NCBI GenBank assembly: GCA_963835575.1 | Contig: CAWIGG010000004.1 | Location: 1,000,016 to 1,064,015 of the forward strand | Source: an uncultured Spirochaetota bacterium | GTDB lineage: Bacteria > Spirochaetota > Brevinematia > Brevinematales > JAOACQ01 | DNA: 64,000 nt | Direction of reading: 5' to 3' | Shown: piece after piece, positions 48,175 through 64,000 of the stretch | How positions within the stretch are numbered: position 1 is the first letter of the stretch | Layout of the letters: each line of letters starts with the position of its first letter | Translations under genes and position numbers: made by a program | The notes under the pieces: generated by a model | Databases searched by the model: none | Told to the model about the DNA's origin: nothing | What the model saw: only the letters and a program-made list of their open reading frames with translations

Positions 48175-48348
48175 TTTGTCATATTGATATTCTTTTTCTC
48201 TCCCCCATGCGCGTTAAGAAAACAATTCAGGGCTGCCGGAAAAATTATTAATTATTGGCCGGTGGTACTCCCGCTTTTTAAGACCCGCGCACTCAAGCCC
48301 GCGTCCCTGGGAAAAGCCGGCAAACCATAGCCTGAGAGCTATAACCGC

Positions 48349-48386
48349 AAAAAACGGGAGGAATGAGATTAAGCCTCATTCCCCCC
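48349..48386 (-). terminator. Terminator after the 325-aa recombinase gene (left copy)
   Basis: Mirror of 61582..61619: GGAATGAG-gcttaat-CTCATTCC with GC extension, then TTTTTT. Confidence 0.65.
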
Positions 48387-48432
48387 GCCGGAAATAGTTT
48401 ATCAAACTGATTTGAAAAAGGCAAGAAAAGAT

Positions 48433-49410
48433 TTAATTGTTTTCGGGACGCGCCTCATCACCGTCATTGACGAGCATACCGGTACAGCGGGGATGCGTTT
48501 TTTCATAAACCTTCCGCAGATCAACGGGCATGACGCGGGAATAAATCTGAGTGGTGCTGAGGAAGGCATGTCCTAAAAGTTCCTGAACATAGCGGATGCT
48601 TGCCCCGTTGGCGATTAAATGGGTGGCGCAGGTATGGCGCAGGGTATGAGTGGAAACCCTCTTTTTAATCCCCGATTTCAGGACGTAGTTATGCAATGCG
48701 GCGCGGAAAGTTCCGGGGACAAGGCTGTCTCGTCCGACGGTGAAAAACACATTTTCGTTAGCCGCATTATTGCAATAGAGAGGCCGGACTTTATCAAGAT
48801 ACAGCTTGAGGAACCTTTTGGCCTGTTTTGTGATGGGTACAACCCGGTCTTTAGAACCTTTGCCCTTGATGAAAAGGTAGGGGCCTTCAAGGTCGAGGTC
48901 GTTGAGTTTAAGGGAACAAAGTTCCGCGCTTCGGATTCCGCTTCCGTAGAATATTTCAAGGATGGCCCTGTTGCGAAGCCCGACCGGATGTTTTATATTC
49001 GGCTGTCGGAGCAGGAGCTTCATTTCCTCGACGGAAAGGATGTCTTTAGGAAACGGGCGTTCAACGCGTTCCAGCGGAATATTGCGGGCGGGGTTTATGA
49101 AGATCATATCATTATTTTCAAGGAAGGAAAGCCAGAGGCGGAGGAAACTTGTCTCAGTCCTGCGGTAGCTGTCGCTGAAGGGCTTTCCGTTTTTCTTGCG
49201 GTGGTTTTTGAGGGAAAGGATGAATTTCTCAATATGTTCTGTTTTAATGTCCGTAACGTCCCGGACGGAAGGGGTGCACCCCAAAGATTCGAGGAACGGG
49301 AAAAGGTGATTGAAGAAAGTGTCAAACCTCAAGATTGTGGCCCCGCTCAAGTTCCTTTTTCTGAGGTGTTCGATGAACTTTTCCCTTGCGATGTAAATGG
49401 ATTTATTCAT
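48433..49410 (-). CDS. tyrosine recombinase (XerC/XerD-like), 325 aa
   Basis: C-terminal catalytic motifs HTLRHTCATHL (HxxR) and LLGHAFLSTTQIYSRV (catalytic Tyr), plus the earlier GSGIRSAELCSLKLNDLD (Arg box). Confidence 0.88.
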   Translation of the reverse strand: MNKSIYIAREKFIEHLRKRNLSGATILRFDTFFNHLFPFLESLGCTPSVRDVTDIKTEHIEKFILSLKNHRKKNGKPFSDSYRRTETSFLRLWLSFLENNDMIFINPARNIPLERVERPFPKDILSVEEMKLLLRQPNIKHPVGLRNRAILEIFYGSGIRSAELCSLKLNDLDLEGPYLFIKGKGSKDRVVPITKQAKRFLKLYLDKVRPLYCNNAANENVFFTVGRDSLVPGTFRAALHNYVLKSGIKKRVSTHTLRHTCATHLIANGASIRYVQELLGHAFLSTTQIYSRVMPVDLRKVYEKTHPRCTGMLVNDGDEARPENN

Positions 49411-50719
49411 GATTTTCCTCCTGCGTGTTCTCTTGAGATATTATCTCTCTTGGATGGAATGCCCGGAGCATGCGTTTAAGGTCTCCTTTTACCACTCTTG
49501 TGTAGGTTTCCGTCGTGTCGAGGCTTGTGTGCCCCAGCATTTCCTGAATATAGCGGATGTCCGCGCCGTTTTTAAGCATGTGGGTTGCGCATGCATAGCG
49601 GAAGGAATGAGGGATGAGGTGTTTTTTGATCCCGGCCTTAAGGGCGTATTTTTTTATCAGGCTTCCGATGAGGTTAACTGTCATCCGCTTTTTGAAAACG
49701 GAGAGAAAGAGGGCTTTGAGGTGCACCTCTTCATCCGGGTTATGAGGCGTGCCTTCCGGGCGTTCTTTCAGGTAATCCCGGATGCGGGAAAGGGCGATGT
49801 CATTGATCGGGACAGCGCGGTCTTTTTTATTCTTGCCTTTGTAAACGGTGATAAGTTTTTCGGTAAAATCGACGTTCCCGATATCGAGGTTAACCAGTTC
49901 TTTGACCCGGATTGCCGAGCCGTAGAGCGTTTCAATGATGGCGATGTCGCGGGAGCCGTAAGGCACGCCCCTGTGGCTTTTCATTTCGATAGAGCTTATA
50001 AGGCGGTCGATTTCGGCGAGGGTGGGGATATCGCGGGATATCCGCTTCGGGACTTTTGGGATTTCCACGGATTTTGAAGGGTCTGTAAGGATGATATTTT
50101 CGGAGCAGAGGAACTTGAAGAAGTTGCGGACATTCACAAGGATATTCGCGCGGGTGGTAACGTTGTAAGGCTTTTGTATTTTGCTCTTTCCCCGGCTTCC
50201 TTTGTAAACGAGGAGATAAAGGGCATAGCCGGAAACAACTTTTTTATCTACCCGCGCGATGTCCGTTATATTATTATTTTCAAGGTATTCCAGAAAGCGC
50301 CGGATGAGCGAGCGGGTAATATCAAGGGTGCGTTCGGAAACTTCCTTTGACGAGGAGATACGGCGGATATATCTTTCGAGAAGTTCCGTAAAGGGAATTG
50401 CGTTCGGGGAAACGGAATCTCTTGAAGCTCCCGGAATAAAGTTCTTCCATTCGAGGAACCGGACGAACTCGCGGGTCTTAAAGTACCCGGTTTTATTGGG
50501 TTTATGGGAACTCCACTCCCCGGTCCCGTGTTTAATCATGGCGAGATATTTATCCGACTGTTCCCTTGTGAAGCCGGAAAGCGGCATATTGTTCTTCTCA
50601 AGATATTCCAGAAGCTTCCGTGCGTAAAGGGCCTTATGCTTCAAGACATTTTCCTTTAACGGCTTAAAAGCCTTCGCGTGTGTAATGTACTCTTTCAGTA
50701 CGGCGTCTTTATCAATCAT
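49403..50719 (-). CDS. tyrosine recombinase, 438 aa, long N-terminal region
   Basis: GSAIRVKELVNLDIGNVD, HSFRYACATHML and MLGHTSLDTTETYTRV motifs. It overlaps the downstream recombinase gene by 8 nt. Confidence 0.88.
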   Translation of the reverse strand: MIDKDAVLKEYITHAKAFKPLKENVLKHKALYARKLLEYLEKNNMPLSGFTREQSDKYLAMIKHGTGEWSSHKPNKTGYFKTREFVRFLEWKNFIPGASRDSVSPNAIPFTELLERYIRRISSSKEVSERTLDITRSLIRRFLEYLENNNITDIARVDKKVVSGYALYLLVYKGSRGKSKIQKPYNVTTRANILVNVRNFFKFLCSENIILTDPSKSVEIPKVPKRISRDIPTLAEIDRLISSIEMKSHRGVPYGSRDIAIIETLYGSAIRVKELVNLDIGNVDFTEKLITVYKGKNKKDRAVPINDIALSRIRDYLKERPEGTPHNPDEEVHLKALFLSVFKKRMTVNLIGSLIKKYALKAGIKKHLIPHSFRYACATHMLKNGADIRYIQEMLGHTSLDTTETYTRVVKGDLKRMLRAFHPREIISQENTQEENHE

Positions 50720-50840
50720 ACGGTAATACCTCCTTTCAAAATATTTTGGCTCTGCCTCTCCCCCCGCTCCTACCGCTCACACTCGATTCAAGCCTTATTT
50801 TACAAAGGTTTGAAGCTCAAAAGTGTGAGCGCTCGCAGTT

Positions 50841-53723
50841 TCACACACTCACACGGTCGGCAGAGCGAAGCCGGAGTGACATTTCTTCCGGCGTGGGGAT
50901 TCTATCAAGCATTAAACGCTCCATTTCTTCTTCCAGAATGATCCTGTAAGCGTGGGTCTGGCCTCTGAAAGAACCCGATATGATTTCCAGAAACTCATAG
51001 TCGGCGAGAATCCCGGTATATTTCCTCACTTGAAAATGGCTCCAGCCGGAGTATTCCCATACCATCTTCCTGGTAAAGAGAATGTCCTTGACAGGCTTGT
51101 TATTCTCCCCGGATATCTCCGATACCATCTCCCTGATTATTCCATAAAGGTCTCTGGCGTTTTTCGGAATATCGGAAAGGGTGTTCGAGAGGATCCCGCT
51201 TTTGACGAGAAGGTCATAGGTTATTTTATAGTCGTCGAGGCTGGCTTCGATGTACTCAAAGGTTTCTTTTGCCGCCGCGTCCTCAATCGTTTTCCTTTCC
51301 CGCCGGTATTGATTGAAAAAAGTAACGGCGTTAAGCACCTGAATGAATTTCATCTGATCGCGCCGGGCTTCCAGCCTTCTTTCAGGGAATCCCATCAGTT
51401 CGGCGTAAGGATTGATGACTAAAACCGGCTTTAAAAGCTTCTGCGCGGCCTTATGCTTTTCAATGATAGCGGGGATTTTCCGCTTTATGAGGAAGCCGGC
51501 CGGGGTTTGAAGGAATCTCTGATACTCAAGGATTCTTGCCGTCTGTTCCTGCGTTTCATCGACAAAGAGGACAAGGCACCGGTTAAGGTTTTCAGGATTG
51601 AGGTTTTCAATCCTGCTGGCCGTCTCGATGTAGGCGATCGGCCCCTTTGTTTTTATTTTGACGCTTTTCATCTGTCCCGTTTTCTCATCTTTCATCGTAA
51701 CAAAGCGGGTGATCTCCTTACTTGAGATAAGTTCCCTTAACGGGTACTCTATATTTTCATTGCCCTTGCTTTCTCCGAGGCAGACGAACTTATGGCTTAA
51801 ATCGGAAGCGTAGTAGAGTGCTGTGTCCGACGCGCTGGATATGGCGACGACTTCCTCATCAGGCAGGAGCTTCCTGACTGTCTCCACAAGCTTGGTTTTA
51901 CCGGCGGAAGAACGGGAAATGATAATGCTGGCCAGAGGTTCTTCCATCTTCCGGGAAGCGGCGATGAGATAGACAAGGATTTTATTCATTTCCTCCCCGA
52001 TGTAGCCCAATGTCGATAAATCGTTTCTCACTTCCTCAAGGAGGGAAGGACTTTTGAGAAGTTCCAGCCCTATGGCTTTTTCCTCGTCCGAGAGGGAAAC
52101 TTCCACCGCCCCGGCCTTTGAAAGTATCTGGTTATCCCGGAGCCTTTCCAGCCTGTCGAGGATCGTTTCAAGGTGTGAAAGGATTGTTTCAAAGGAAACC
52201 TCGAAGCGCGCCCCGATAGTGTTCGCGAAGGCGGCGCGCATCCGGGCGGAGTAAAGGTTCACGCTGTCATAGAAGAAGTTTTCCTCTTTAAGGTGATGGA
52301 CGCGGACTCCGGCCTTGAGGCTATTTTCAAAATCTTCCTTTATTCCCCTGAGCCGATAAGTAAAGCCGTCGATAGTGAATTCATAATCTCCATTCGGAAG
52401 CTGTTTCATTTCGTTTGATTGTACTTCTTGAGGCGGACTCTCTTCTATTATATTAGAAGCTGGCGCGATGTTTTGAGGCGGAGCTGTGAACCGCGTTTCT
52501 TGAGGTATTACCGGAGGTATCACTTCTTCAACAAGCCGTTTCATTTCTTCGGGGGTGGCCTTACCTGCCGGAATAGATAAAATTTTCTGAGCTATATCAT
52601 CAATGCCCTGCGCTTCCTCGATTAATCTTTTGAGTGAGAGTCCGCCTTCCTCGATGGATGAAATCTTCATCAAGAGTTCATTAATGTCTTTGACTTTGAG
52701 GCCGCGCGTCTCCTCTGGAATAGTCAGGGTAAAGACATGGGAAAAGCCTTCTTTCTTAATCCGTTCGGAAAGCTTTTTTGAAGCGAACTTTCCCGCCCCG
52801 TCATTATCATAGGCTATGATTATTTTGCGGGTATTGTTTTCCTCCATAAGTTTGAGGTGGTTTTCGGTAAAGCCCTGAATTCCGAAAGAAGCCGTTACGT
52901 TCAGGAAGCCGAGCCGGACACAGGACAGCGCGTCAATGACGCTTTCGGTTATTATGATTTCCTCATACACCTTGAAAGCTTTTGAGTTGAACACCCCTTC
53001 GTGTTTTCCCTTAAGGTAGCGGTGCTTGATCTTGGCTTCTTCATTGATAGAGCGTCCATAGATTTCAACAACGCGGTTTTCCCCGTCCATAATCGGAAAG
53101 ATGATACAGCCTTTGAATAACTCAAAGACGCTTTCCTTTCCGGATTTGTTTCTAAGTCTGCCGATGATACCGAGGCTTTCAAGGATTTCCAGCTCTTCGC
53201 CGGTCTTTGAAAGCGTTTCCGGTATGTTGCCTTTAGAAAATCCGAGTTTAAAGGTATTTATTATTTCCGGCGTTCCGATTCCTCTTTGTTCAAGGTATTT
53301 TAGAGCCTCTGGACTTTCTAAAAGGTTTTTATGATAGATTTCAGCAAGTCTTTCAAGAATCGGGATTCTTTTATTCTTATCAAGGCTTACAGGCTCCGGC
53401 GCGGTTTCTTTCTTAAGAGATACTTTCACTTTTTTAACCGGCTCTTGAATGTTCAAATTACCGGCAAGATAATTTACCGCCTCATTGAATTTGAGGCCGC
53501 GCCTTTTCATCACATAGCTGAATATATCCCCGCCCTGTTCACAGCCGAAGCAATGGTAAAGCTGTTTTTCTGTATCGACGGAAAGCGAAGGCGTTTTATC
53601 ATCGTGAAAGGGACAGAGCGTCATAAATTTTCCCTGCCCCGCCGGGATGAGGTCATGCCCCTCCCGCCGGAGGTATTCCTCCAGCGGGAGAGAGTTCTTG
53701 ATTTTCTCTTTAATGTTTTCCAT
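50841..53723 (-). CDS. primase-helicase-like protein (zf-CHC2 + Toprim + P-loop NTPase)
   Basis: DnaG-type zinc finger CPFHDDKTPSLSVDTEKQLYHCFGCEQGGDIFSYV. Toprim ITESVIDALS...IIIAYDNDGAGK. Walker A-like SRSSAGKTKL and Walker B-like CLVLFVDE in the C-terminal half. Confidence 0.85.
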   Translation of the reverse strand: MENIKEKIKNSLPLEEYLRREGHDLIPAGQGKFMTLCPFHDDKTPSLSVDTEKQLYHCFGCEQGGDIFSYVMKRRGLKFNEAVNYLAGNLNIQEPVKKVKVSLKKETAPEPVSLDKNKRIPILERLAEIYHKNLLESPEALKYLEQRGIGTPEIINTFKLGFSKGNIPETLSKTGEELEILESLGIIGRLRNKSGKESVFELFKGCIIFPIMDGENRVVEIYGRSINEEAKIKHRYLKGKHEGVFNSKAFKVYEEIIITESVIDALSCVRLGFLNVTASFGIQGFTENHLKLMEENNTRKIIIAYDNDGAGKFASKKLSERIKKEGFSHVFTLTIPEETRGLKVKDINELLMKISSIEEGGLSLKRLIEEAQGIDDIAQKILSIPAGKATPEEMKRLVEEVIPPVIPQETRFTAPPQNIAPASNIIEESPPQEVQSNEMKQLPNGDYEFTIDGFTYRLRGIKEDFENSLKAGVRVHHLKEENFFYDSVNLYSARMRAAFANTIGARFEVSFETILSHLETILDRLERLRDNQILSKAGAVEVSLSDEEKAIGLELLKSPSLLEEVRNDLSTLGYIGEEMNKILVYLIAASRKMEEPLASIIISRSSAGKTKLVETVRKLLPDEEVVAISSASDTALYYASDLSHKFVCLGESKGNENIEYPLRELISSKEITRFVTMKDEKTGQMKSVKIKTKGPIAYIETASRIENLNPENLNRCLVLFVDETQEQTARILEYQRFLQTPAGFLIKRKIPAIIEKHKAAQKLLKPVLVINPYAELMGFPERRLEARRDQMKFIQVLNAVTFFNQYRRERKTIEDAAAKETFEYIEASLDDYKITYDLLVKSGILSNTLSDIPKNARDLYGIIREMVSEISGENNKPVKDILFTRKMVWEYSGWSHFQVRKYTGILADYEFLEIISGSFRGQTHAYRIILEEEMERLMLDRIPTPEEMSLRLRSADRVSV

Positions 53724-53734
53724 GCTGTCCTCCC

Positions 53735-54100
53735 TTATTTCCAGATAACAAGGAACCGGACGGAGAGTTCAAGGCAGATGCGGAGCGTTGAGCCTGTGCC
53801 TCTGGAAATGCCATCCCAGAACAGGACAACAAAATCGCAATATTTTACCAGCTCCCTATTTCTGACAATGCCCGCAGACCGTCCGTATTTATGCCACAGG
53901 GCCGGAAACACTTTCAAGTCCAGCGCATGGGCGCGGGCATACCGCTCCGCGAGGGCGTCAGCGCCTTGAGGACATCCGCCCGACACCACAACATCGGCGC
54001 AGGACAAATCCAGAGCGTCGAGCGTTTTCTCAAGCTTCGCATAGTCGGTAAAAGAACGCGAGCCGACAACCCCGATTTTCACATAGTTTTTATTTTCCAT
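53735..54100 (-). CDS. SLOG-fold protein (DUF2493 / DprA-like Rossmann)
   Basis: 121 aa. IGVVGSRSFTDY...VVVSGGCPQGADALAERYA...GRSAGIVRNRELV...VLFWDGISRGT matches the DUF2493 pattern as I know it. Confidence 0.7.
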   Translation of the reverse strand: MENKNYVKIGVVGSRSFTDYAKLEKTLDALDLSCADVVVSGGCPQGADALAERYARAHALDLKVFPALWHKYGRSAGIVRNRELVKYCDFVVLFWDGISRGTGSTLRICLELSVRFLVIWK

Positions 54101-54299
54101 TTATTCCTCCCGCCTTCATGCTGGCCGCTATGCCGCTTTTGAAGACGCCCGGTCGTACCCCCGCTGATACCCTTTTGTCAAGTACTTTTTTAGATTTATT
54201 TTACTGATACTTTCAGTACAAAGACTTGAAAAAAGAAAATATCCGGCCTTTGATTAAAAGCCTTAATGACTTTCATAACTAAACACAAACAGGCCATGT

Positions 54300-54345
54300 C
54301 GTTTTGGCATGGGTTTTGACATTCGCAGAAACCCATGCCAAAACG
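54300..54345 (+). repeat. Covarying hairpin H1 (17-bp perfect stem, conserved loop)
   Basis: CGTTTTGGCATGGGTTT-tgacattcgcag-AAACCCATGCCAAAACG. Confidence 0.9.
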
Positions 54346-54378
54346 GAGAAAGCTTTAGAATGGAATAATAAGACATCT

Positions 54379-54426
54379 CCGTTCCGGCATATTTTTTGAC
54401 GGCCGCAAAAAGATATGCCGGAACGG
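54379..54426 (+). repeat. Covarying hairpin H2
   Basis: CCGTTCCGGCATAT-tttttgacggccgcaaaaag-ATATGCCGGAACGG; the inner TTTTT/AAAAA extends the stem. Confidence 0.85.
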
Positions 54427-54503
54427 TGTTACCTCAATTCTTAAAATTATTAGTTTATTAACAATTCAATAATGTCTTTAAGTGTTTTGCAGACTCTTAT
54501 TAT

Positions 54504-54532
54504 TTGACAAAATATCCATATGGGTATATATT
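54504..54532 (+). promoter_or_regulatory. Sigma70-like promoter with palindromic core for the second TA operon
   Basis: TTGACA (54504-54509), 17 nt, then TATATT (54527-54532). The spacer contains CCATATGG with imperfect flanking symmetry. Confidence 0.6.
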
Positions 54533-54548
54533 ATTTTAGGATTGAAAG

Positions 54549-55176: not shown

Positions 55177-55305
55177 AACACTCTTCTAAAAACAGTAAAG
55201 CCCTGTTCTTTTTAAAAGCTAAAGTATAATCGCTTTAATATAAGGACAGGGCTTTTTTATTTAAAATGGAAAGTCAGCCTCTCATTTAAAACAAAAAGAT
55301 TACTT

Positions 55306-56244: not shown

Positions 56245-59127
56245 ATGGAAAACATTAAAGAGAAAATCAAGAACTCTCTCCCGCTGGAGGAATACCTCCG
56301 GCGGGAGGGGCATGACCTCATCCCGGCGGGGCAGGGAAAATTTATGACGCTCTGTCCCTTTCACGATGATAAAACGCCTTCGCTTTCCGTCGATACAGAA
56401 AAACAGCTTTACCATTGCTTCGGCTGTGAACAGGGCGGGGATATATTCAGCTATGTGATGAAAAGGCGCGGCCTCAAATTCAATGAGGCGGTAAATTATC
56501 TTGCCGGTAATTTGAACATTCAAGAGCCGGTTAAAAAAGTGAAAGTATCTCTTAAGAAAGAAACCGCGCCGGAGCCTGTAAGCCTTGATAAGAATAAAAG
56601 AATCCCGATTCTTGAAAGACTTGCTGAAATCTATCATAAAAACCTTTTAGAAAGTCCAGAGGCTCTAAAATACCTTGAACAAAGAGGAATCGGAACGCCG
56701 GAAATAATAAATACCTTTAAACTCGGATTTTCTAAAGGCAACATACCGGAAACGCTTTCAAAGACCGGCGAAGAGCTGGAAATCCTTGAAAGCCTCGGTA
56801 TCATCGGCAGACTTAGAAACAAATCCGGAAAGGAAAGCGTCTTTGAGTTATTCAAAGGCTGTATCATCTTTCCGATTATGGACGGGGAAAACCGCGTTGT
56901 TGAAATCTATGGACGCTCTATCAATGAAGAAGCCAAGATCAAGCACCGCTACCTTAAGGGAAAACACGAAGGGGTGTTCAACTCAAAAGCTTTCAAGGTG
57001 TATGAGGAAATCATAATAACCGAAAGCGTCATTGACGCGCTGTCCTGTGTCCGGCTCGGCTTCCTGAACGTAACGGCTTCTTTCGGAATTCAGGGCTTTA
57101 CCGAAAACCACCTCAAACTTATGGAGGAAAACAATACCCGCAAAATAATCATAGCCTATGATAATGACGGGGCGGGAAAGTTCGCTTCAAAAAAGCTTTC
57201 CGAACGGATTAAGAAAGAAGGCTTTTCCCATGTCTTTACCCTGACTATTCCAGAGGAGACGCGCGGCCTCAAAGTCAAAGACATTAATGAACTCTTGATG
57301 AAGATTTCATCCATCGAGGAAGGCGGACTCTCACTCAAAAGATTAATCGAGGAAGCGCAGGGCATTGATGATATAGCTCAGAAAATTTTATCTATTCCGG
57401 CAGGTAAGGCCACCCCCGAAGAAATGAAACGGCTTGTTGAAGAAGTGATACCTCCGGTAATACCTCAAGAAACGCGGTTCACAGCTCCGCCTCAAAACAT
57501 CGCGCCAGCTTCTAATATAATAGAAGAGAGTCCGCCTCAAGAAGTACAATCAAACGAAATGAAACAGCTTCCGAATGGAGATTATGAATTCACTATCGAC
57601 GGCTTTACTTATCGGCTCAGGGGAATAAAGGAAGATTTTGAAAATAGCCTCAAGGCCGGAGTCCGCGTCCATCACCTTAAAGAGGAAAACTTCTTCTATG
57701 ACAGCGTGAACCTTTACTCCGCCCGGATGCGCGCCGCCTTCGCGAACACTATCGGGGCGCGCTTCGAGGTTTCCTTTGAAACAATCCTTTCACACCTTGA
57801 AACGATCCTCGACAGGCTGGAAAGGCTCCGGGATAACCAGATACTTTCAAAGGCCGGGGCGGTGGAAGTTTCCCTCTCGGACGAGGAAAAAGCCATAGGG
57901 CTGGAACTTCTCAAAAGTCCTTCCCTCCTTGAGGAAGTGAGAAACGATTTATCGACATTGGGCTACATCGGGGAGGAAATGAATAAAATCCTTGTCTATC
58001 TCATCGCCGCTTCCCGGAAGATGGAAGAACCTCTGGCCAGCATTATCATTTCCCGTTCTTCCGCCGGTAAAACCAAGCTTGTGGAGACAGTCAGGAAGCT
58101 CCTGCCTGATGAGGAAGTCGTCGCCATATCCAGCGCGTCGGACACAGCACTCTACTACGCTTCCGATTTAAGCCATAAGTTCGTCTGCCTCGGAGAAAGC
58201 AAGGGCAATGAAAATATAGAGTACCCGTTAAGGGAACTTATCTCAAGTAAGGAGATCACCCGCTTTGTTACGATGAAAGATGAGAAAACGGGACAGATGA
58301 AAAGCGTCAAAATAAAAACAAAGGGGCCGATCGCCTACATCGAGACGGCCAGCAGGATTGAAAACCTCAATCCTGAAAACCTTAACCGGTGCCTTGTCCT
58401 CTTTGTCGATGAAACGCAGGAACAGACGGCAAGAATCCTTGAGTATCAGAGATTCCTTCAAACCCCGGCCGGCTTCCTCATAAAGCGGAAAATCCCCGCT
58501 ATCATTGAAAAGCATAAGGCCGCGCAGAAGCTTTTAAAGCCGGTTTTAGTCATCAATCCTTACGCCGAACTGATGGGATTCCCTGAAAGAAGGCTGGAAG
58601 CCCGGCGCGATCAGATGAAATTCATTCAGGTGCTTAACGCCGTTACTTTTTTCAATCAATACCGGCGGGAAAGGAAAACGATTGAGGACGCGGCGGCAAA
58701 AGAAACCTTTGAGTACATCGAAGCCAGCCTCGACGACTATAAAATAACCTATGACCTTCTCGTCAAAAGCGGGATCCTCTCGAACACCCTTTCCGATATT
58801 CCGAAAAACGCCAGAGACCTTTATGGAATAATCAGGGAGATGGTATCGGAGATATCCGGGGAGAATAACAAGCCTGTCAAGGACATTCTCTTTACCAGGA
58901 AGATGGTATGGGAATACTCCGGCTGGAGCCATTTTCAAGTGAGGAAATATACCGGGATTCTCGCCGACTATGAGTTTCTGGAAATCATATCGGGTTCTTT
59001 CAGAGGCCAGACCCACGCTTACAGGATCATTCTGGAAGAAGAAATGGAGCGTTTAATGCTTGATAGAATCCCCACGCCGGAAGAAATGTCACTCCGGCTT
59101 CGCTCTGCCGACCGTGTGAGTGTGTGA
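56245..59127 (+). CDS. primase-helicase-like protein, right copy
   Basis: Translation identical to 50841..53723. Confidence 0.85.
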   Translation: MENIKEKIKNSLPLEEYLRREGHDLIPAGQGKFMTLCPFHDDKTPSLSVDTEKQLYHCFGCEQGGDIFSYVMKRRGLKFNEAVNYLAGNLNIQEPVKKVKVSLKKETAPEPVSLDKNKRIPILERLAEIYHKNLLESPEALKYLEQRGIGTPEIINTFKLGFSKGNIPETLSKTGEELEILESLGIIGRLRNKSGKESVFELFKGCIIFPIMDGENRVVEIYGRSINEEAKIKHRYLKGKHEGVFNSKAFKVYEEIIITESVIDALSCVRLGFLNVTASFGIQGFTENHLKLMEENNTRKIIIAYDNDGAGKFASKKLSERIKKEGFSHVFTLTIPEETRGLKVKDINELLMKISSIEEGGLSLKRLIEEAQGIDDIAQKILSIPAGKATPEEMKRLVEEVIPPVIPQETRFTAPPQNIAPASNIIEESPPQEVQSNEMKQLPNGDYEFTIDGFTYRLRGIKEDFENSLKAGVRVHHLKEENFFYDSVNLYSARMRAAFANTIGARFEVSFETILSHLETILDRLERLRDNQILSKAGAVEVSLSDEEKAIGLELLKSPSLLEEVRNDLSTLGYIGEEMNKILVYLIAASRKMEEPLASIIISRSSAGKTKLVETVRKLLPDEEVVAISSASDTALYYASDLSHKFVCLGESKGNENIEYPLRELISSKEITRFVTMKDEKTGQMKSVKIKTKGPIAYIETASRIENLNPENLNRCLVLFVDETQEQTARILEYQRFLQTPAGFLIKRKIPAIIEKHKAAQKLLKPVLVINPYAELMGFPERRLEARRDQMKFIQVLNAVTFFNQYRRERKTIEDAAAKETFEYIEASLDDYKITYDLLVKSGILSNTLSDIPKNARDLYGIIREMVSEISGENNKPVKDILFTRKMVWEYSGWSHFQVRKYTGILADYEFLEIISGSFRGQTHAYRIILEEEMERLMLDRIPTPEEMSLRLRSADRVSV

Positions 59128-59248
59128 AACTGCGAGCGCTCACACTTTTGAGCTTCAAACCTTTGTAAAATAAGGCTTGAATCGAGTGTGAGCGGTAGGA
59201 GCGGGGGGAGAGGCAGAGCCAAAATATTTTGAAAGGAGGTATTACCGT

Positions 59249-60565
59249 ATGATTGATAAAGACGCCGTACTGAAAGAGTACATTACACACGCGAAGGCTT
59301 TTAAGCCGTTAAAGGAAAATGTCTTGAAGCATAAGGCCCTTTACGCACGGAAGCTTCTGGAATATCTTGAGAAGAACAATATGCCGCTTTCCGGCTTCAC
59401 AAGGGAACAGTCGGATAAATATCTCGCCATGATTAAACACGGGACCGGGGAGTGGAGTTCCCATAAACCCAATAAAACCGGGTACTTTAAGACCCGCGAG
59501 TTTGTCCGGTTCCTCGAATGGAAGAACTTTATTCCGGGAGCTTCAAGAGATTCCGTTTCCCCGAACGCAATTCCCTTTACGGAACTTCTCGAAAGATATA
59601 TCCGCCGTATCTCCTCGTCAAAGGAAGTTTCCGAACGCACCCTTGATATTACCCGCTCGCTCATCCGGCGCTTTCTGGAATACCTTGAAAATAATAATAT
59701 AACGGACATCGCGCGGGTAGATAAAAAAGTTGTTTCCGGCTATGCCCTTTATCTCCTCGTTTACAAAGGAAGCCGGGGAAAGAGCAAAATACAAAAGCCT
59801 TACAACGTTACCACCCGCGCGAATATCCTTGTGAATGTCCGCAACTTCTTCAAGTTCCTCTGCTCCGAAAATATCATCCTTACAGACCCTTCAAAATCCG
59901 TGGAAATCCCAAAAGTCCCGAAGCGGATATCCCGCGATATCCCCACCCTCGCCGAAATCGACCGCCTTATAAGCTCTATCGAAATGAAAAGCCACAGGGG
60001 CGTGCCTTACGGCTCCCGCGACATCGCCATCATTGAAACGCTCTACGGCTCGGCAATCCGGGTCAAAGAACTGGTTAACCTCGATATCGGGAACGTCGAT
60101 TTTACCGAAAAACTTATCACCGTTTACAAAGGCAAGAATAAAAAAGACCGCGCTGTCCCGATCAATGACATCGCCCTTTCCCGCATCCGGGATTACCTGA
60201 AAGAACGCCCGGAAGGCACGCCTCATAACCCGGATGAAGAGGTGCACCTCAAAGCCCTCTTTCTCTCCGTTTTCAAAAAGCGGATGACAGTTAACCTCAT
60301 CGGAAGCCTGATAAAAAAATACGCCCTTAAGGCCGGGATCAAAAAACACCTCATCCCTCATTCCTTCCGCTATGCATGCGCAACCCACATGCTTAAAAAC
60401 GGCGCGGACATCCGCTATATTCAGGAAATGCTGGGGCACACAAGCCTCGACACGACGGAAACCTACACAAGAGTGGTAAAAGGAGACCTTAAACGCATGC
60501 TCCGGGCATTCCATCCAAGAGAGATAATATCTCAAGAGAACACGCAGGAGGAAAATCATGAATAA
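59249..60565 (+). CDS. tyrosine recombinase 438 aa, right copy
   Basis: Translation identical to 49403..50719. Confidence 0.88.
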   Translation: MIDKDAVLKEYITHAKAFKPLKENVLKHKALYARKLLEYLEKNNMPLSGFTREQSDKYLAMIKHGTGEWSSHKPNKTGYFKTREFVRFLEWKNFIPGASRDSVSPNAIPFTELLERYIRRISSSKEVSERTLDITRSLIRRFLEYLENNNITDIARVDKKVVSGYALYLLVYKGSRGKSKIQKPYNVTTRANILVNVRNFFKFLCSENIILTDPSKSVEIPKVPKRISRDIPTLAEIDRLISSIEMKSHRGVPYGSRDIAIIETLYGSAIRVKELVNLDIGNVDFTEKLITVYKGKNKKDRAVPINDIALSRIRDYLKERPEGTPHNPDEEVHLKALFLSVFKKRMTVNLIGSLIKKYALKAGIKKHLIPHSFRYACATHMLKNGADIRYIQEMLGHTSLDTTETYTRVVKGDLKRMLRAFHPREIISQENTQEENHE

Positions 60566-61535
60566 ATCCATTTACATCGCAAGGGAAAAGTTCATCGAAC
60601 ACCTCAGAAAAAGGAACTTGAGCGGGGCCACAATCTTGAGGTTTGACACTTTCTTCAATCACCTTTTCCCGTTCCTCGAATCTTTGGGGTGCACCCCTTC
60701 CGTCCGGGACGTTACGGACATTAAAACAGAACATATTGAGAAATTCATCCTTTCCCTCAAAAACCACCGCAAGAAAAACGGAAAGCCCTTCAGCGACAGC
60801 TACCGCAGGACTGAGACAAGTTTCCTCCGCCTCTGGCTTTCCTTCCTTGAAAATAATGATATGATCTTCATAAACCCCGCCCGCAATATTCCGCTGGAAC
60901 GCGTTGAACGCCCGTTTCCTAAAGACATCCTTTCCGTCGAGGAAATGAAGCTCCTGCTCCGACAGCCGAATATAAAACATCCGGTCGGGCTTCGCAACAG
61001 GGCCATCCTTGAAATATTCTACGGAAGCGGAATCCGAAGCGCGGAACTTTGTTCCCTTAAACTCAACGACCTCGACCTTGAAGGCCCCTACCTTTTCATC
61101 AAGGGCAAAGGTTCTAAAGACCGGGTTGTACCCATCACAAAACAGGCCAAAAGGTTCCTCAAGCTGTATCTTGATAAAGTCCGGCCTCTCTATTGCAATA
61201 ATGCGGCTAACGAAAATGTGTTTTTCACCGTCGGACGAGACAGCCTTGTCCCCGGAACTTTCCGCGCCGCATTGCATAACTACGTCCTGAAATCGGGGAT
61301 TAAAAAGAGGGTTTCCACTCATACCCTGCGCCATACCTGCGCCACCCATTTAATCGCCAACGGGGCAAGCATCCGCTATGTTCAGGAACTTTTAGGACAT
61401 GCCTTCCTCAGCACCACTCAGATTTATTCCCGCGTCATGCCCGTTGATCTGCGGAAGGTTTATGAAAAAACGCATCCCCGCTGTACCGGTATGCTCGTCA
61501 ATGACGGTGATGAGGCGCGTCCCGAAAACAATTAA
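60558..61535 (+). CDS. tyrosine recombinase 325 aa, right copy
   Basis: Translation identical to 48433..49410. Confidence 0.88.
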   Translation: MNKSIYIAREKFIEHLRKRNLSGATILRFDTFFNHLFPFLESLGCTPSVRDVTDIKTEHIEKFILSLKNHRKKNGKPFSDSYRRTETSFLRLWLSFLENNDMIFINPARNIPLERVERPFPKDILSVEEMKLLLRQPNIKHPVGLRNRAILEIFYGSGIRSAELCSLKLNDLDLEGPYLFIKGKGSKDRVVPITKQAKRFLKLYLDKVRPLYCNNAANENVFFTVGRDSLVPGTFRAALHNYVLKSGIKKRVSTHTLRHTCATHLIANGASIRYVQELLGHAFLSTTQIYSRVMPVDLRKVYEKTHPRCTGMLVNDGDEARPENN

Positions 61536-61581
61536 ATCTTTTCTTGCCTTTTTCAAATCAGTTTGATAAACTATTTCCGGC

Positions 61582-61619
61582 GGGGGGAATGAGGCTTAAT
61601 CTCATTCCTCCCGTTTTTT
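61582..61619 (+). terminator. Terminator after the 325-aa recombinase gene (right copy)
   Basis: GGGGGGAATGAG-gcttaat-CTCATTCCTCCC, then GTTTTTTG. Confidence 0.65.
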
Positions 61620-61778
61620 GCGGTTATAGCTCTCAGGCTATGGTTTGCCGGCTTTTCCCAGGGACGCGGGCTTGAGTGCGCGGGTCTTAAAAAGCGGGAG
61701 TACCACCGGCCAATAATTAATAATTTTTCCGGCAGCCCTGAATTGTTTTCTTAACGCGCATGGGGGAGAGAAAAAGAA

Positions 61779-64000
61779 TATTCATACGATAAAGTGGGGA
61801 ACAGGACGAAGGAGACGGCCCGCGAATCCACGCGAATAGGCACGAATGGAAACGGAGGGAATGAGGGCACCTCCGGCGGGGAACGGGTTTCGACGTTCCT
61901 TTATGACAAGGCGTACAGGCTGGTTAAGGCTGACTATAGCGAAAGCAAGTACGAGGAATTTTCTTACGATAATTCAGGGAACAGGCTGAAAAAAACTTCG
62001 AATTTAGACGGTTCGAATACTGTTATTACCGCCTACGTTTATGATAACGACAACCGCTTACTTTGCGAACAGAAGCCATCCGGTAATATTTCCTATATTT
62101 ATGACAAAGCCGGAAGGATTGTCAAAAAAACCGATGGGGACAAGACAGAACGTTACACCTACGACCAGAGGGATTTATTAAAGAAATTTACAGTAGAACA
62201 AAATGGGAACATAGTTTCTGTTTTAGACTACACCTATGACATTAATAATTTGCGCACCGTCAAGAAAGAAACACCGGAGACACCCGGAAGTATGGGTAAT
62301 TCTGAAATAAAATTTGTCTATGACGGGAATGATATCCTCTTTGAAGGCGGGACTTTCCATCTGACGAAGGTTGATCAGCGAAGCGGATATGAAGCCGAAA
62401 TCCAGCCTTTAAGGATAGCCGTCCACATAAAGGACGCTAACGGAAGTATCAGGGGTGAATTGTACGATGCTCCAATAACCATTGAGACAAAAACGTTTTC
62501 ATATCAGACATTCAATTTTACCGCCTTCGGCGAGCAGATGAAACTCGGCGACGAGAGCGAGGGCGAAAAGGACGGCTTAAGTTTTAAAGGCCATTACTTT
62601 GACCATAGCTCCGGCCTTTACTATGCCGTCGCGCGTTTTTACAATCCCGATACTGGACGCTTTATTTCCCCCGATCCTATCAGCGATCCTTCAAAACGCT
62701 ATTCGCCAGCCGGTTTAAACCGGTATGTCTATGGCATCAACAATCCTTTAAAATATTCCGATCCCGACGGTCAATGGGCCTTCTTCGATGACATTGCCGC
62801 GTTAATAATCGGCGCGGTAGTAGGTGCTATAAACAACATAATAACCGATATAACGAGTGGCGACTGGAAGGATATACTGGCCGATTCCATCCTTGGATCG
62901 GTAAGCGGTGCGGTGAACTTCGAGCTTCAGCATAACGCCATACCGGTTTATATAGGACTCTCGACAAGAGGCTATAGTGCCGGGGTTGGTTTCGGGTTAG
63001 GCGGCGGCGCGTTCAATGTCGGGGCGGGCTTCCATTCCGACTGGAACGGCCAGAATTACGGATTCAGCGCCAGTGCGGGTGTGGGAATGCCCGGAGGGGC
63101 TGGATTCGGGGTCTCCATCGGGGCGGACTACAGCCGGGAGAATGGATGGACAAGCAATATCGGGGCGAACGTAAGCCTCGGAATGACAAAGAATAGCACG
63201 CTGAATCTCGGCGCAAGCCTGAATTTCGACAGCGAGGGAGTGGCCGGAGGCGGCTTCACATTCGGAATGAGCGAGAGGGGAGCGGCGGACGCAAAAACCG
63301 GGGCTTATGATGTAATGGGAGCGACGGCGGGTATAAACACAGACAGATATGGAAGAGCGAGCGAAAGCCTCGGCCTGACGTACGGCCATAACGAGCTGAC
63401 GAAGGACAGCAACGGCAAATACACCAAAGATTATATGAGTTACAATTACGGGTACGGGATAAACGTCAGCGCGAACGGGAAGGTAACGCCATACGGGAAT
63501 TATTCGGCTTCGCTGTATATGGCAAAGCAGGATAATGCCGAGACGAAGAAAATGACTGACACCGGGGCGATGAAGAAGAAAGCGGATGAAGCGAAAAATC
63601 CATACGATCAATATACCTCGATGTATGGAAAGACCGAAATGACTTCCGAGCAGATCAATTTATTAAACGACTACCAGAGACAGGTTCAAGCGGTTCAGCA
63701 TGAAGTAAACAGCCAGCTTGTTCAGGAACAAGAGAATCAAAAAATTCAGGGCAAGCAGTTTGCGCAAGATATTTATGGCGGGATATTGAGAGAGAATGAA
63801 CAGGAATTACAAGCGGGGAATTCATATAAAGATCAAATGACGCATTTTACGGATGATGGCGAGGAGTATGTCAGCGTAGTTATAAAAGGGGTGAAGTTAA
63901 GTTTCGCGAAAGCGGAATTTTATATTCCAGATGACCCTAACAGTACGGAAATTACCGGTCTTGTAGATGGACGCACATGCACAAATATTTATTACGCCAT
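61779..64000 (+). CDS. orphan rhs tip cassette 3 (direct orientation), open to the window end, with a different C-terminal tip
   Basis: Hand translation in the frame starting at 61779. It reads YSYDKVGNRTKETARESTRIGTNG...YDNSGNRLKKTSNLDGSN...RFYNPDTGRFISPDPISDPSKRYSPAGLNRYVYGINNPLKYSDPDGQW, then a Gly-rich segment and a tip unlike the M23 tip (...QLVQEQENQKIQGKQFAQDIYGG...). An in-frame stop lies at 61752 and there is no ATG, so it has no start of its own. It is missing from the ORF track because no stop occurs before 64000. Confidence 0.8.

Follow-up and report, generated by a model that had tools for sequence, protein, structure and literature searches.

The 64,000-nt stretch of DNA analysed here (the window), from an uncultured Spirochaetota bacterium, contains an Rhs polymorphic toxin locus with delivery shell, toxin, immunity genes and truncated orphan tips, together with a replication and recombination module that is present twice in inverted orientation (Table 1). 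The product of the full-length rhs gene has a signal peptide, many RHS/YD repeats (Pfam RHS_repeat, 5.6e-109) and a C-terminal Peptidase_M23 toxin (1.3e-14), with the tip, CT1, starting at 37277. The C-terminal half of the toxin and the immunity gene form a second inverted repeat without a single mismatch over 1906 nt, outside which identity falls sharply to about 65%. Between its arms lies a centre whose caspase-like protease was matched by Pfam Peptidase_C14 and by the PADLOC models caspase (7.8e-10) and PDC-M72A. The core-proximal part of the orphan tip CT1' shows ~65-80% identity to CT1 and has three or more frameshifts (three-frame translation and identity profile), while the second orphan tip, CT3, differs from CT1 in its C-terminal region.

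Table 1. Features of the rhs locus and of the mirrored module, in window coordinates
Feature	Position	Strand	Basis or remark
Full-length rhs gene, 3602 aa	29024..39832	+	ORF, Pfam
S1, candidate recombination site	37277..37347	+	Inside intact rhs ORF; attL type (rhs core/tip)
Second inverted repeat, left arm	38964..40869	+	1906 nt; partner 44592-46497
Putative CT1 immunity gene	39849..40613	+	Directly 3' of toxin; signal peptide and SH3_3 (Pfam 2.8e-9)
Centre B	41166..44256		Between arms of second inverted repeat; Pfam, PADLOC, GC content
Ankyrin-repeat membrane protein (centre B)	41166-42092	+	Pfam Ank
Low-GC (28%) three-gene cluster (centre B)	42189-44256	-	Includes caspase-like protease
Second immunity-gene copy	44848..45717	-	Identical 289-aa translation; within exact inverted repeat
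Orphan rhs tip CT1'	45629..48189	-	Same M23 toxin; 5'-truncated at S2
S2, 71-nt site	48119..48189	-	Inverted; attP type (element/tip)
Left arm	48190..54210	-	Repeat search, ORFs, Pfam
Left-arm recombinase B	48433-49410	-	325 aa
Left-arm recombinase A	49403-50719	-	438 aa
Left-arm primase/MCM-like helicase	50841-53723	-	960 aa
Left-arm SLOG gene	53735-54100	-	121 aa
Left-arm spacer	54148-54155	-	8 nt, CCCGGTCG
Left-arm inner block	54156-54210	-	55 nt
Unique centre A	54211..55754	+	Pfam, promoter scan, hairpin search
Five 17-bp-stem hairpins (centre A)	54300-54345, 54380-54425, 55306-55350, 55412-55457, 55550-55595
Sigma-70-like promoter	54504-54532		11/12 match; promoter scan
HigB/Gp49-like toxin	54549-54929	+	Pfam
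HTH antitoxin	54874-55176	+	Pfam
Right arm	55755..61778	+	Repeat search, ORFs, mirroring
Right-arm inner block	55755-55809	+	55 nt
Right-arm spacer	55810-55820	+	11 nt
Right-arm SLOG gene	55868-56233	+
Right-arm primase/helicase	56245-59127	+
Right-arm recombinase A	59249-60565	+
Right-arm recombinase B	60558-61535	+
Right-arm hairpin and T-run, 3' of recombinase B	about 61585-61622	+	Read from sequence
Right-arm decayed rhs remnant	up to 61778	+	In-frame stop
S3, 71-nt site	61779..61849	+	Direct with S1; attR type (element/tip)
Orphan rhs tip CT3	61779..64000	+	Open to window end, 740 aa so far; Pfam RHS_repeat

The mirrored module and its genes

A repeat search of the window placed the inverted arms at 48119-54147 and 55821-61849 (6029 nt), with a further, perfectly matching 55-nt inverted block at their inner ends. 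Base-by-base mirroring (coordinate sum 109968) gave one mismatch between 48187-54147 and its partner, G at 50465 against T at 59503, a synonymous change in the gene of the 438-aa recombinase; together with the non-matching inner spacers of 8 and 11 nt, this is the only departure from the original prediction of essentially nucleotide-identical arms. The mirror copies (48187-54210 and 55755-61781) enclose a unique 1.5-kb toxin-antitoxin centre, and the rhs-homologous flanks beyond 48187 and 61781 are diverged from each other, as had also been proposed, with 5 mismatches in the first 68 nt and 60-86% identity thereafter.

The same mirror layout occurs in L001/L004 and L005, two contigs of another metagenome (ENA sample ERZ25039512); in L005 the centre carries another toxin-antitoxin cargo (PIN). 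Arm identity is 99.8-99.9% within an element but 85-89% between elements, and both spacer types are conserved across the mirrored elements, so the inverted repeat is ancestral and homogenised. Five arm ends could be read, in three independent elements, and every one of them terminates at the same nucleotide; the tip that follows an L005 arm is 95% identical (amino acids) to the tip on the full-length rhs described here, joined at the same position. A fold-back or mis-join during assembly, with only one real arm, would produce just such near-perfect 6-kb identity; we nevertheless regard an artefact as very improbable, given the unique centre, the asymmetric spacers, the one SNP, the different flanks on the two sides, and the recurrence of the layout, with both spacer types, in the two mirrored elements of the other metagenome.

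The gene content proposed for each arm is confirmed by Pfam searches and ORF analysis. The 121-aa protein belongs to SLOG/YAcAr, and the 960-aa protein combines a CHC2 zinc finger, DnaG_N, Toprim and a P-loop domain. The latter matches DnaG primase (PDB 2au3, 3.5e-27), and the C-terminal half of its AlphaFold model (pLDDT 82.5) matches MCM, NrS-1 and SaPI Rep helicases, with SaPIbov1 Rep among the structural matches. The 438- and 325-aa proteins, whose genes overlap by 8 nt, are Phage_integrase members (2e-38 and 1.2e-39) and Xer-like according to NCBIfam, with XerC/XerD equivalog scores of 202-236 bits against cut-offs of 330-371. As read from the translations, both retain the catalytic R, K, HxxR, H and Y motifs (...GIRSAE.., KGKGSKDR, HTLRHTCATH and LLGH..IYSRV in one; ..AIRVKE.., KGKNKKDR, HSFRYACATH and MLGH..TYTRV in the other), and hence the R-K-H-R-H/W-Y signature of the tyrosine recombinases of site-specific integrative elements. 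Judged from these motifs and from the model, both recombinases and the primase/helicase look functional. The DnaG primase and MCM-like AAA+ helicase, together with the HigBA-type module of centre A, make up the initiator/helicase and maintenance functions of a replicon. The five hairpins of centre A, which are confined to it, have covarying stems (10 of the 17 pairs are compensatory, and none of 500 shuffles was equally good) and are candidates for an origin or other cis sites.

The outer junction and a 71-nt site in rhs

Each arm ends in ...GAGAAAAAGAATAT, followed by a 5'-truncated rhs tip that begins Y-x-YDKVGNRTKE; at the nucleotide level both outer ends read ...CGCATGGGGGAGAGAAAAAGAATAT and then TAT-nnn-TAy-GAy-AAA-GTG-GGG-AAC (Y-x-Y-D-K-V-G-N). 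Of the earlier claim that rhs sequence starts right at the arm ends, the identical junction at both ends stands, but a remnant of rhs extends ~100 nt further upstream: GAATAT and the ~100 nt before it are decayed, in-frame rhs sequence with a stop codon (..EYHRPIINNFSGSPELFS-stop-RAWGREKE/Y.YDKVGN, compared with ..YEYDPIYRLMKINNTTNGLFLSSFGY/TYDKVGN in rhs, the slash marking the junction). The junction is therefore a transition from fixed element sequence to exchangeable tip, and not the outer limit of rhs homology.

Comparison of the sequences around 48187, 61781 and 37277 revealed the shared core that had been anticipated, a common 71-nt site, S, which is also present inside the full-length rhs (S1: TAT ACA TAC GAC AAA GTG GGG AAC..., encoding Y-T-Y-D-K-V-G-N-R-T-K-E). 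S1 and S3 form a 71-nt direct repeat, 94% identical and 24,502 nt apart, in the manner of attL and attR sharing a core with their target, while S2 is an inverted copy. In both arms the exchangeable sequence starts at the first nucleotide after GAATAT, within a region of high identity that spans roughly 170 nt. Around S no Xer/dif-like dyad core was recognised (best 7/11 matches), and no motif is common to S and the inner 55-nt block. A chromosomal XerC/XerD-dif system or an IMEX was considered and rejected, since the recombinases score below the NCBIfam cut-offs, no dif-like dyad was recognised at S, and the recombinase genes are duplicated inside a mobile module.

The nucleotides right after the junction differ (ACA in S1, CAA in S2, TCA in S3); if strands are exchanged at this point, recombination between any two of the sites should be inefficient. 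Joining 29024-37276 to 61779-64000, as by an S1-S3 deletion, keeps the rhs-CT3 reading frame open. The product of recombination between S1 and S2 would stop 369 aa after S; the S2 tip is frameshifted, and switching to it would therefore give a truncated protein. On the element itself the tips are silent, with an in-frame stop 9 codons upstream and a hairpin and T-run 3' of recombinase B (sequence reading).

In shufflons (R64 Rci/pilV, phase-variable hsdS), a tyrosine recombinase acting on repeats in coding sequence swaps the C-terminal part of a protein for silent cassettes. A domesticated, non-mobile switch of this kind, flipping tips between inverted S sites on a single rhs gene, is consistent with S1 lying in the expressed gene, an inverted S2 heading a silent cassette, the adjacent recombinase genes and the two perfect inverted repeats. 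Spacer/centre pairings also differ among the relatives, so inversion does occur in the element family. Shufflons are, however, purely inversional and non-replicative, whereas direct repeats, a replication module and plasmid forms are typical of the present family. The primase-helicase, ParA or SLOG, addiction modules, plasmid or circular-looking relatives and tandem direct arrays point to a moving replicon, the sites are all in direct orientation in most relatives, and the sole inverted cassette here, CT1', is frameshifted rather than functional. A resident switch is accordingly an improbable explanation of the locus.

A primase-recombinase family linked to Rhs tips

The primase-recombinase backbone is widespread, occurring on a circular-looking 9.2-kb contig, a Lonsdalea plasmid, tandem chromosomal arrays and a Ralstonia solanacearum megaplasmid; 74 PLSDB plasmid records hold a homologue, and a scan of viral contigs found no relatives. 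ParA is encoded in most relatives. In most loci with readable downstream sequence, a truncated Rhs C-terminal cassette with an immunity gene lies 3' of the recombinases, bracketed by short att-like direct repeats. The search by tblastn and motif scans located truncated Rhs ends after the recombinase genes, directly or past a toxin-antitoxin pair, in L002, L006, L008-L012, L017, L023, L024, L027, L028, L029, L031, L033, L035 and L036; non-Rhs sequence follows in L013-L015, L025 and L032.

The position of the join is conserved over considerable distances. In L012, whose recombinase is 42% identical, the join to rhs again falls at the YDKVGNRTKE codons, and distant relatives (primase 30-37% identical) are joined at RYYDP or NNPxxYxDPxGL end-of-core motifs, their elements being bracketed by direct repeats of 61-144 nt: three copies of a 61-nt repeat with 93-98% identity in L028, a 67-nt repeat 94% identical in L031, where the two elements themselves are only 75% identical, and three copies of a 144-nt repeat in L029. 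In L029/L030 (two independent assemblies), a full-length SpvB/TcdB/RHS toxin and its immunity gene are followed by HTH-ParA-primase-rec-rec, then by a tip with immunity gene, an orphan and a second element, while the order on the megaplasmid of R. solanacearum Po82 is full-length Rhs, primase, recombinase, tip and orphan rhs. Both gene orders, in L029 with the immunity genes included, are those that would be expected after integration.

Free forms carry tips as well. The 9.2-kb contig, L017, has a 144-nt terminal overlap with one mismatch, implying a 9177-bp circle, and encodes ParA, primase, two recombinases, HicAB and a tip beginning ANWYAYCANNPVKYTDPSGM just past a stop codon; an exact terminal overlap was seen in no contig. 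The 11,289-bp circular plasmid of Lonsdalea populi N-5-1 (L035) bears a primase, an xerC-like gene and two silent tips, which begin ..NYGYVHNPxxWxDPFGL and are each accompanied by an immunity gene. L035 and L036 have a single recombinase only. In a tandem array, the tip/immunity pair is different in each unit.

Conserved genes, those for tRNAs among them, serve many integrative elements as targets, and rhs might similarly be no more than a handy insertion site, its pieces being target remnants and nothing being switched on; the decayed rhs on the element side of the junction is in keeping with this. Such neutral targeting is, however, quite improbable in view of the free forms (L017 and the L035 plasmid) that already bear truncated tips and cognate immunity genes, the variable pairs of the tandem array, and the rhs upstream of integrated copies, which is not truncated at S but complete with its toxin tip and, in this window and in L029, an immunity gene.

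The main rival explanation is that tip-carrying plasmids integrate or swap solely by RecA-dependent homologous recombination, with the short conserved stretch of rhs as the region of homology, and that the Xer-like recombinases do nothing but resolve plasmid multimers or flip the centre. Plasmid-borne Xer-like resolvases are common, L035 and L036 have one recombinase each, and S lacks a recognisable core site. The topology would be no different if RecA mediated a Campbell-type integration over this short homology, and direct repeats on either side are exactly what a single homologous crossover leaves; activation of known Rhs orphans also proceeds by homologous recombination (PMC3967940). We consider this reading unlikely, albeit less so than the others. 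The recombinase genes adjoin the 5' end of the tip even at a primase identity of ~30%, the L031 site is conserved at 94% against 75% for its elements, the truncation point is retained at 42% recombinase identity, and in both arms exchange starts right after GAATAT instead of being scattered over roughly 170 nt.

Proposed mechanism and relation to known systems

The comparative evidence supports the originally proposed site-specific link between a replicative or integrative element and conserved rhs sequence, rather than a simple segmental duplication; carriage or targeting of rhs tips by the element is likewise supported by the common junctions, the att-like repeats and the plasmid forms with silent tips. 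With a probability of about 0.58, we interpret the region as an integrated, plasmid-like, self-replicating element that exchanges the toxin tips of Rhs in frame, within conserved coding sequence. The broad family to which it belongs is characterised by a DnaG-primase/MCM-like helicase, ParA or SLOG, an addiction module, one or two Xer-like tyrosine recombinases and, as cargo, a silent 5'-truncated Rhs C-terminal cassette (shell end and toxin) with its immunity gene. We infer that the element replicates, that the recombinases catalyse tip exchange and that integration switches the tips on.

In the proposed mechanism, the recombinase pair would join S on the element, about 70 nt from Y-x-YDKVGNRTKE, with the same stretch of rhs in a full-length chromosomal gene. 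The crossover would fuse the element's tip in frame to the host Rhs delivery shell, with the matching immunity gene coming along, and the displaced tip would remain, now an orphan, immediately 3' of the recombinase genes. S1 (37277) and S3 (61779) would then represent the attL- and attR-like ends of a 24.5-kb insert, while S2 (48189), attP-like and inverted, would lie inside the insert, next to a decayed tip. Members of this subfamily carry two copies of the 6-kb replication/recombination module; these form an ancestral inverted repeat, kept identical by concerted evolution, on either side of an invertible centre with toxin-antitoxin genes and hairpins. The same link in relatives from many bacteria points to a type of mobile element that would supply its hosts with new toxin "warheads", spliced in frame onto the resident Rhs gene, together with matching immunity genes.

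P4-like elements and PICI/SaPI, integrative plasmids or satellite-type islands with an integrase and a primase-helicase, resemble the present element in combining an integrase with a replication initiator/helicase, a conserved host target and att-like direct repeats. Here, in contrast, the element targets a toxin gene at the end of its coding sequence, integration would rebuild that gene with new cargo, and phage-interference or packaging genes are absent. The yeast 2-micron plasmid has FLP/FRT in inverted repeats, and plastids also possess large inverted repeats. Likeness to these lies in the large inverted repeats, the flipping unique segment, the tyrosine recombinase and concerted evolution, but here the whole replication/recombination module is inside the repeat and chromosomally integrated. 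Amplification of copy number as in 2-micron would be pure speculation.

We found no published description of such an element family in the literature, and as far as we could find it is so far undescribed. In bee-gut Snodgrassella and Gilliamella, integrase-like genes were repeatedly observed near Rhs and suggested to aid Rhs capture (PMC5727410), a position that likens them to the recombinases described here; that study reports co-occurrence only, calls for more work and defines no element, site or replicon. The rAID-1 loci of Bacteroidales, for which integron-like acquisition was suggested, likewise have an XerD-family tyrosine recombinase adjoining polymorphic-toxin-related cassettes, and are defined by a 5' XerD-like recombinase, at least two co-directional low-GC immunity genes and repeated intergenic sequences (bioRxiv 10.1101/471110). 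They differ in having one recombinase, long co-directional orphan immunity arrays and repeated intergenic sites, and lack a primase-helicase, partition genes and in-frame joining to an rhs ORF; the locus described here, where behind each recombinase pair come an rhs tip and a single immunity gene but no immunity array, does not fit that definition.

A further close likeness, in layout and expression, is to arrays of Rhs orphan tips, in which a full-length rhs is followed by silent 5'-truncated tips with immunity genes, homology is limited to the core end, and a toxin is expressed after its tip recombines onto the core. Tip displacement by homologous recombination has been described for rhs-main/rhs-orphan of Salmonella Typhimurium (PMC3967940), and the polymorphic-toxin cassette model notes XerC/D genes beside polyimmunity loci (PMC3482391). 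The published mechanism is RecA-type, between resident copies and without a mobile carrier (PMC3967940, PMC3482391). Unlike in those arrays, the tips here are physically linked to a replicon that has its own dedicated recombinases, and they occur on free plasmids too, and their truncation point is fixed to the nucleotide.

Mirrored arms and their centre

As originally predicted, the element consists of two inverted copies of one gene module: a repeat search placed the arms at 48119-54147 and 55821-61849, together with a 55-nt pair at 54156-54210 and 55755-55809. Along the mirror axis given by the predicted coordinate sum of 109968, positions 48187-54147 differ from their counterpart at a single nucleotide (50465 G versus 59503 T), which on translation is synonymous in the larger recombinase. 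Each arm carries the anticipated genes: one for a SLOG/YAcAr protein (121 aa), one for a 960-aa protein in which CHC2 zinc finger, DnaG_N and Toprim domains are recognised, and a Phage_integrase pair (438 and 325 aa) whose genes overlap. Over its N-terminal third the 960-aa protein is a DnaG primase (PDB 2au3, 3.5e-27), and structural matches for the C-terminal half of its AlphaFold model (pLDDT 82.5) are MCM subunits, the helicase region of NrS-1 and the Rep helicase of SaPIbov1. Both recombinases are Xer-like, with catalytic motifs kept in their translations and scores under the XerC/XerD equivalog cut-offs. PADLOC gave the element's genes no defence-system assignment, generic domain matches aside. 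An origin from a phage or satellite was rejected, as viral contigs yielded a zinc-finger match only.

Inside the arms, mirror alignment resolves a short spacer, a perfect 55-nt block and a unique centre of 1544 nt. The same architecture recurs in two other elements, both from ENA sample ERZ25039512 (contig_45928, covering L001/L004, and contig_45924, L005), whose primases are 79% and 84% identical, respectively, to that of the window. Their gene order is tip (Rhs C-terminal end plus toxin), recombinases, primase and SLOG on one strand, centre, SLOG, primase and recombinases on the other strand, and tip; their arms are ~100% identical internally over 5982 nt and at least 4340 nt. A joint alignment gave 99.8-99.9% identity between arms within elements versus 85-89% between elements, and both spacer types, CCGG and GAAACC, occur in every mirrored element, so the inverted repeat is ancestral and its arms evolve in concert. 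That the duplication is an assembly artefact fits these comparative data less well, and we regard it as very improbable.

The asymmetric spacer is conserved just upstream of the SLOG gene, where it escapes the homogenisation acting on its two sides and overlaps a possible -10 region downstream of a TTGACA facing the SLOG operon. Compared with the window and L004, spacer type and centre flank are combined the opposite way round in L005 and in a further relative, L032, which implies that crossing-over inside the 55-nt block has flipped the centre.

A Gp49/HigB-like toxin and an HTH antitoxin, preceded by an 11/12 promoter match, are encoded in the centre; that of L005 holds a different addiction module (PIN). 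Five hairpins with the loop-region consensus TTTTGAC.YCCGCA.AAA are confined to the centre within the window and are also found in the L004 and L005 centres. Pairing in the stem reaches 99.5% over 11 copies, with compensatory changes in 10 of the 17 pairs, and none of 500 shuffles was as good; one L005 copy has its loop inverted in place. These hairpins are candidate origin or other cis-acting sites. No tRNA or Rfam feature that could serve as integration target or element RNA was found near the element.

Two routes to the palindrome were considered and rejected. A telomere-resolvase or hairpin-replicon origin conflicts with both symmetry axes being unique non-palindromic segments, and an inverted dimer formed by antiparallel recombination at the rhs junction site conflicts with all three such junctions being normal (core/tip or element/tip) and with axes lying away from them.

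Coordinates of features in the window and in the loci of relatives (L numbers)
Feature	Locus	Position (strand)	Details
Left-arm spacer	window	54148-54155	8 nt, CCCGGTCG, CCGG-type
Right-arm spacer	window	55810-55820	11 nt, GGAAACCCCTT (equivalent strand), GAAACC-type; unrelated to left 8 nt
Spacer pair	L004	6144-6151 vs 8143-8153	
Spacer pair	L005	4409-4419 vs 6075-6082	
Spacer	L032	~205-215	
Five centre hairpins	window	54300-54345, 54380-54425, 55306-55350, 55412-55457, 55550-55595	17-bp covarying stems, conserved 12-nt loop
Full-length rhs	window	29024-39832	3602 aa; signal peptide, many RHS repeats, M23 peptidase toxin; SH3-domain immunity candidate next
Six hairpin-forming repeats	window	33332-36475	45 nt (..CCCCTCCTTAATAAGGAGGGG..), in rhs ORF, frame unbroken; encode repeated ..TTPNPLLNKEGS.. 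insertions
Three 10-bp-phased repeats	window	37316-37345; 48121-48150 (-); 61818-61847	CGCGAATCCA CGCGAATAGG CACGAATGG; directly after YDKVGNRTKE site
Exact inverted repeat	window	38964-40869 / 44592-46497	1906 nt, zero mismatches; C-terminal half of M23 toxin, immunity gene, ~250 nt beyond
Low-GC insert (24-35%)	window	41166-44256	between two toxin/immunity copies; ankyrin-repeat membrane protein (PADLOC PDC-M72A-like), three-gene cluster (-)
Orphan tip CT1'	window	45629-48189 (-)	reads from S2
Tip truncation	L002, L006, L012		at/near YDKVGNR
Tip truncation	L008-L011, L023, L024, L027, L033, L029		at YYxxARYYDPxxGRF motif
Tip truncation	L017, L028, L031, L035, L036		at NNPxKYxDPxGL
Bracketing direct repeats	L028		61 nt, 3 copies, 93-98% identical
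Bracketing direct repeats	L031		67 nt, 94% identity; its two tandem elements only 75% identical
Bracketing direct repeats	L029		144 nt, 3 copies
Non-Rhs partner of primase-recombinase backbone	L025	40-149, 13964-14073	
Non-Rhs partner	L013	7436-7630	
Non-Rhs partner	L014	5687-6541	
Non-Rhs partner	L032	5463-6824	

The junction with rhs

Both arms had been predicted to end at the same rhs codon and to adjoin diverged rhs flanks. All five readable arm ends do stop at ...GAGAAAAAGAATAT, followed by nnn-TAy-GAy-AAr-GTs-GGG-AAC-AGG-AC. Homology to rhs extends into the element. The element side is a decayed rhs remnant that keeps its frame but for a stop codon (..EYHRPIINNFSGSPELFS, stop, RAWGREKE, versus ..YEYDPIYRLMKINNTTNGLFLSSFGY in rhs), and GAATAT itself is rhs-derived, since other rhs genes read ..SSFEY-x-YDKVGN. 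This in-frame remnant led us to reject the idea that the sharp junction is just the outer edge of rhs homology. On the flanking side, likeness to rhs continues past 48187 and 61781, yet mismatches set in immediately and identity falls from 86% to ~60-70%. The junction thus separates sequence that is fixed in the element from tip sequence that can be exchanged.

The regions around 48187, 61781 and 37270-37290, proposed for comparison, share a sequence: the 71 nt heading both orphan tips (site S) recur at 37277 in the intact rhs. This copy, S1, has the same orientation as S3 (61779) and the opposite one to S2 (48189). Nothing convincing was found in the way of a dif- or lox-like dyad at S or a motif common to S and the inner 55-nt block. 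Phased repeats follow the site, and other rhs genes have analogous CACGAATT or ACGGATT repeats in the same place (L004 ~19180-19215; L006 6034-6115 and 6331-6412); these could bind accessory proteins or represent a further family of in-frame repeats.

Exchange at the junction is supported by two comparisons. The tip behind an L005 arm is 95% identical in amino acids to that on the window's full-length core, with the same joining position, and L012 is joined at the same YDKVGNRTKE codons despite a recombinase only 42% identical. Joining S1 to S3 leaves the rhs-CT3 reading frame open, CT3 being an intact tip that runs from S3 through to the window end, and ahead of the tips carried by the element come a stop codon and, as read from the sequence, a terminator-like hairpin.

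What the sequences show directly is a module resembling a replicon, in which both recombinase genes are intact, a fixed border with exchangeable Rhs tips, att-like repeats and, among relatives, plasmid as well as integrated tandem forms. In the mechanism we propose, the recombinase pair would act at S to swap DNA between the element and full-length rhs, so that the element's toxin and immunity genes would be installed and expressed and the old tip would be parked behind the recombinase genes. Positions 37277-61778 would then be a single 24.5-kb insert; CT3 would represent the original tip, now displaced, and CT1' together with S2 an internal second 'port'. The main alternative, integration by RecA only, would yield an identical topology; it fits the comparative data less well and seems unlikely to us. 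A purely resident inversion switch also accords less with those data, and we hold it to be still less probable.

Relatives and the proposed tip shuttle

Over 30 related loci were collected from protein searches and one metagenome scan. Among genome representatives, recombinase B alone found no relatives and the primase alignment only one Rikenellaceae MAG. Most loci with a readable downstream region bear out the predicted association with rhs, carrying a 5'-truncated Rhs C-terminal fragment and a small gene after the recombinases, with a truncation point that varies by subfamily. Two loci (L008, L029) are tandem arrays with a separate tip/immunity pair per unit. L029/L030, from two independent assemblies, have the complete order expected after integration: full-length SpvB/TcdB/RHS toxin, immunity, HTH-ParA-primase-rec-rec, tip plus immunity, orphan and next element. 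In L028 (9762-9860, 11999-12097), a third tip has the 61-nt site and also 35 nt of element-side flank with no element ahead, an arrangement that looks like cassettes stacked in the manner of an integron array. Some relatives (L013-L015, L025, L032) join non-Rhs conserved sequences (..FSKPLWGGKFLG..ISIAV.., ..GVSDKKLLWRA.. and a Gly-rich 454-aa ORF), and the primase-recombinase family may serve other polymorphic-toxin types too. That rhs is a neutral target agrees less well with the comparative data and appears improbable.

Exact terminal overlaps, sought as a sign of circularity, were found in none of the loci examined. One locus, L017, has a 144-nt terminal overlap with one mismatch, implying a circle of 9177 bp whose contents are ParA, primase, a pair of recombinases, HicAB and a tip starting just past a stop codon. 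A tblastn search of PLSDB found a homologous primase in 74 plasmid records. The finished 11,289-bp plasmid NZ_CP072857.1 of Lonsdalea populi N-5-1 (L035) holds a primase and a further copy of it that has decayed, a xerC-like gene, toxin-antitoxin modules and two Rhs-type tips that are silent (..NYGYVHNPxxWxDPFGL). One tip is annotated as an endonuclease and lies beside an NTF2-fold immunity protein; the second, annotated as an HNH endonuclease, precedes a small hypothetical gene. In the Ralstonia solanacearum Po82 megaplasmid (NC_017575.1 145695-172328, L036), the locus at about 149.6-164.8 kb has a full-length Rhs, primase, one recombinase, a small tip and an orphan rhs. Existing annotation marks neither as such an element.

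A more far-reaching reading, to which we give a probability of about 0.35, is that a widespread and so far unrecognised class of small replicons ('Rhs tip shuttles') spreads by using a dedicated recombinase pair to splice its toxin/immunity cassette in frame into a host Rhs, producing population-level addiction: element-free cells would be killed by siblings, and the host's toxin-delivery machine would become an addiction system for the element. The mirrored subfamily would use its 6-kb inverted repeats and invertible centre for an extra role; 2-micron-like copy amplification, or two-sided tip capture through a recombination-competent end at each side, are only speculation. The shuttle idea is directly testable, as relatives exist in cultured bacteria.

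Rhs and other polymorphic toxins are among the fastest-diversifying bacterial genes, and tip exchange is usually put down to resident orphan cassettes that recombine by homology, or else to horizontal transfer that is left unexplained. If the shuttle reading is correct, a self-replicating carrier that brings tip and immunity to a fixed coding site would account for the movement of toxins between strains, the ordered pile-up of orphan tips behind rhs genes and the recurrent integrase-like genes in Rhs loci. It would be a rare mobile element that rebuilds a host gene in frame on integrating, relevant to strain competition in microbiomes and a natural system for swapping parts of a protein-coding gene.

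The element combines known kinds, an integrative plasmid-like element and polymorphic-toxin cassette exchange. The closest ideas in the literature are the recombination of orphan tips in Rhs loci (PMC3967940, PMC3482391), the recombinase-associated immunity arrays rAID-1 (bioRxiv 10.1101/471110), an untested remark on Rhs-associated integrases (PMC5727410), shufflons, and integrase-plus-primase islands; in none of these do a replicon, a pair of recombinases and in-frame fusion to the Rhs core end occur together. A full-text literature search found no description of such an element.

The resident rhs locus

The locus is chromosomal, as the window begins with tRNA, ribosomal-protein and rpoBC genes; the source contig measures 1.07 Mb. 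The host belongs to the Brevinematia (Spirochaetota) and is uncultured; its rpoB shares 80-81% identity with 'MAG: Brevinematia bacterium' and 71-72% with Brevinema, and the nearest rpoB relatives found, on contigs of up to 1.9 Mb, reach 92%. Over its last 1906 nt the orphan tip CT1' matches 38964-40869 of the main gene exactly, whereas its core-proximal 1.5 kb are only ~65-80% identical, and the abrupt fall to ~65% outside the repeat suggests recent gene conversion between expressed and orphan tip. That core-proximal part contains at least three frameshifts (one at ~47083, a compensating pair around the FDYTAFGE region), which may reflect genuine decay or indel errors of long reads; homopolymer indels occur in the same tip of L001/L004. 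The low-GC insert between the two toxin/immunity copies could be a module for defence or for effector delivery or function; its three-gene cluster (28% GC) encodes a caspase-like protease along with two proteins of predicted membrane or unknown type.

Upstream of rhs, and overlapping its start by 11 nt, lies a DUF559 (endonuclease-like) gene (28606-29034). A secreted 3175-aa protein with an S8 subtilase and many bacterial Ig-like domains is encoded directly upstream of the locus (15876-25403), and a DDE transposase (DDE_Tnp_1_6) at 13924-15390 has 90% cluster members on several large contigs, making it a multi-copy IS in the lineage. Within rhs itself, the 45-nt repeats look like REP/MITE-type elements tolerated in frame, and a stretch in L002 (..PSPSPIAGEGN..) resembles the insertions that they encode.
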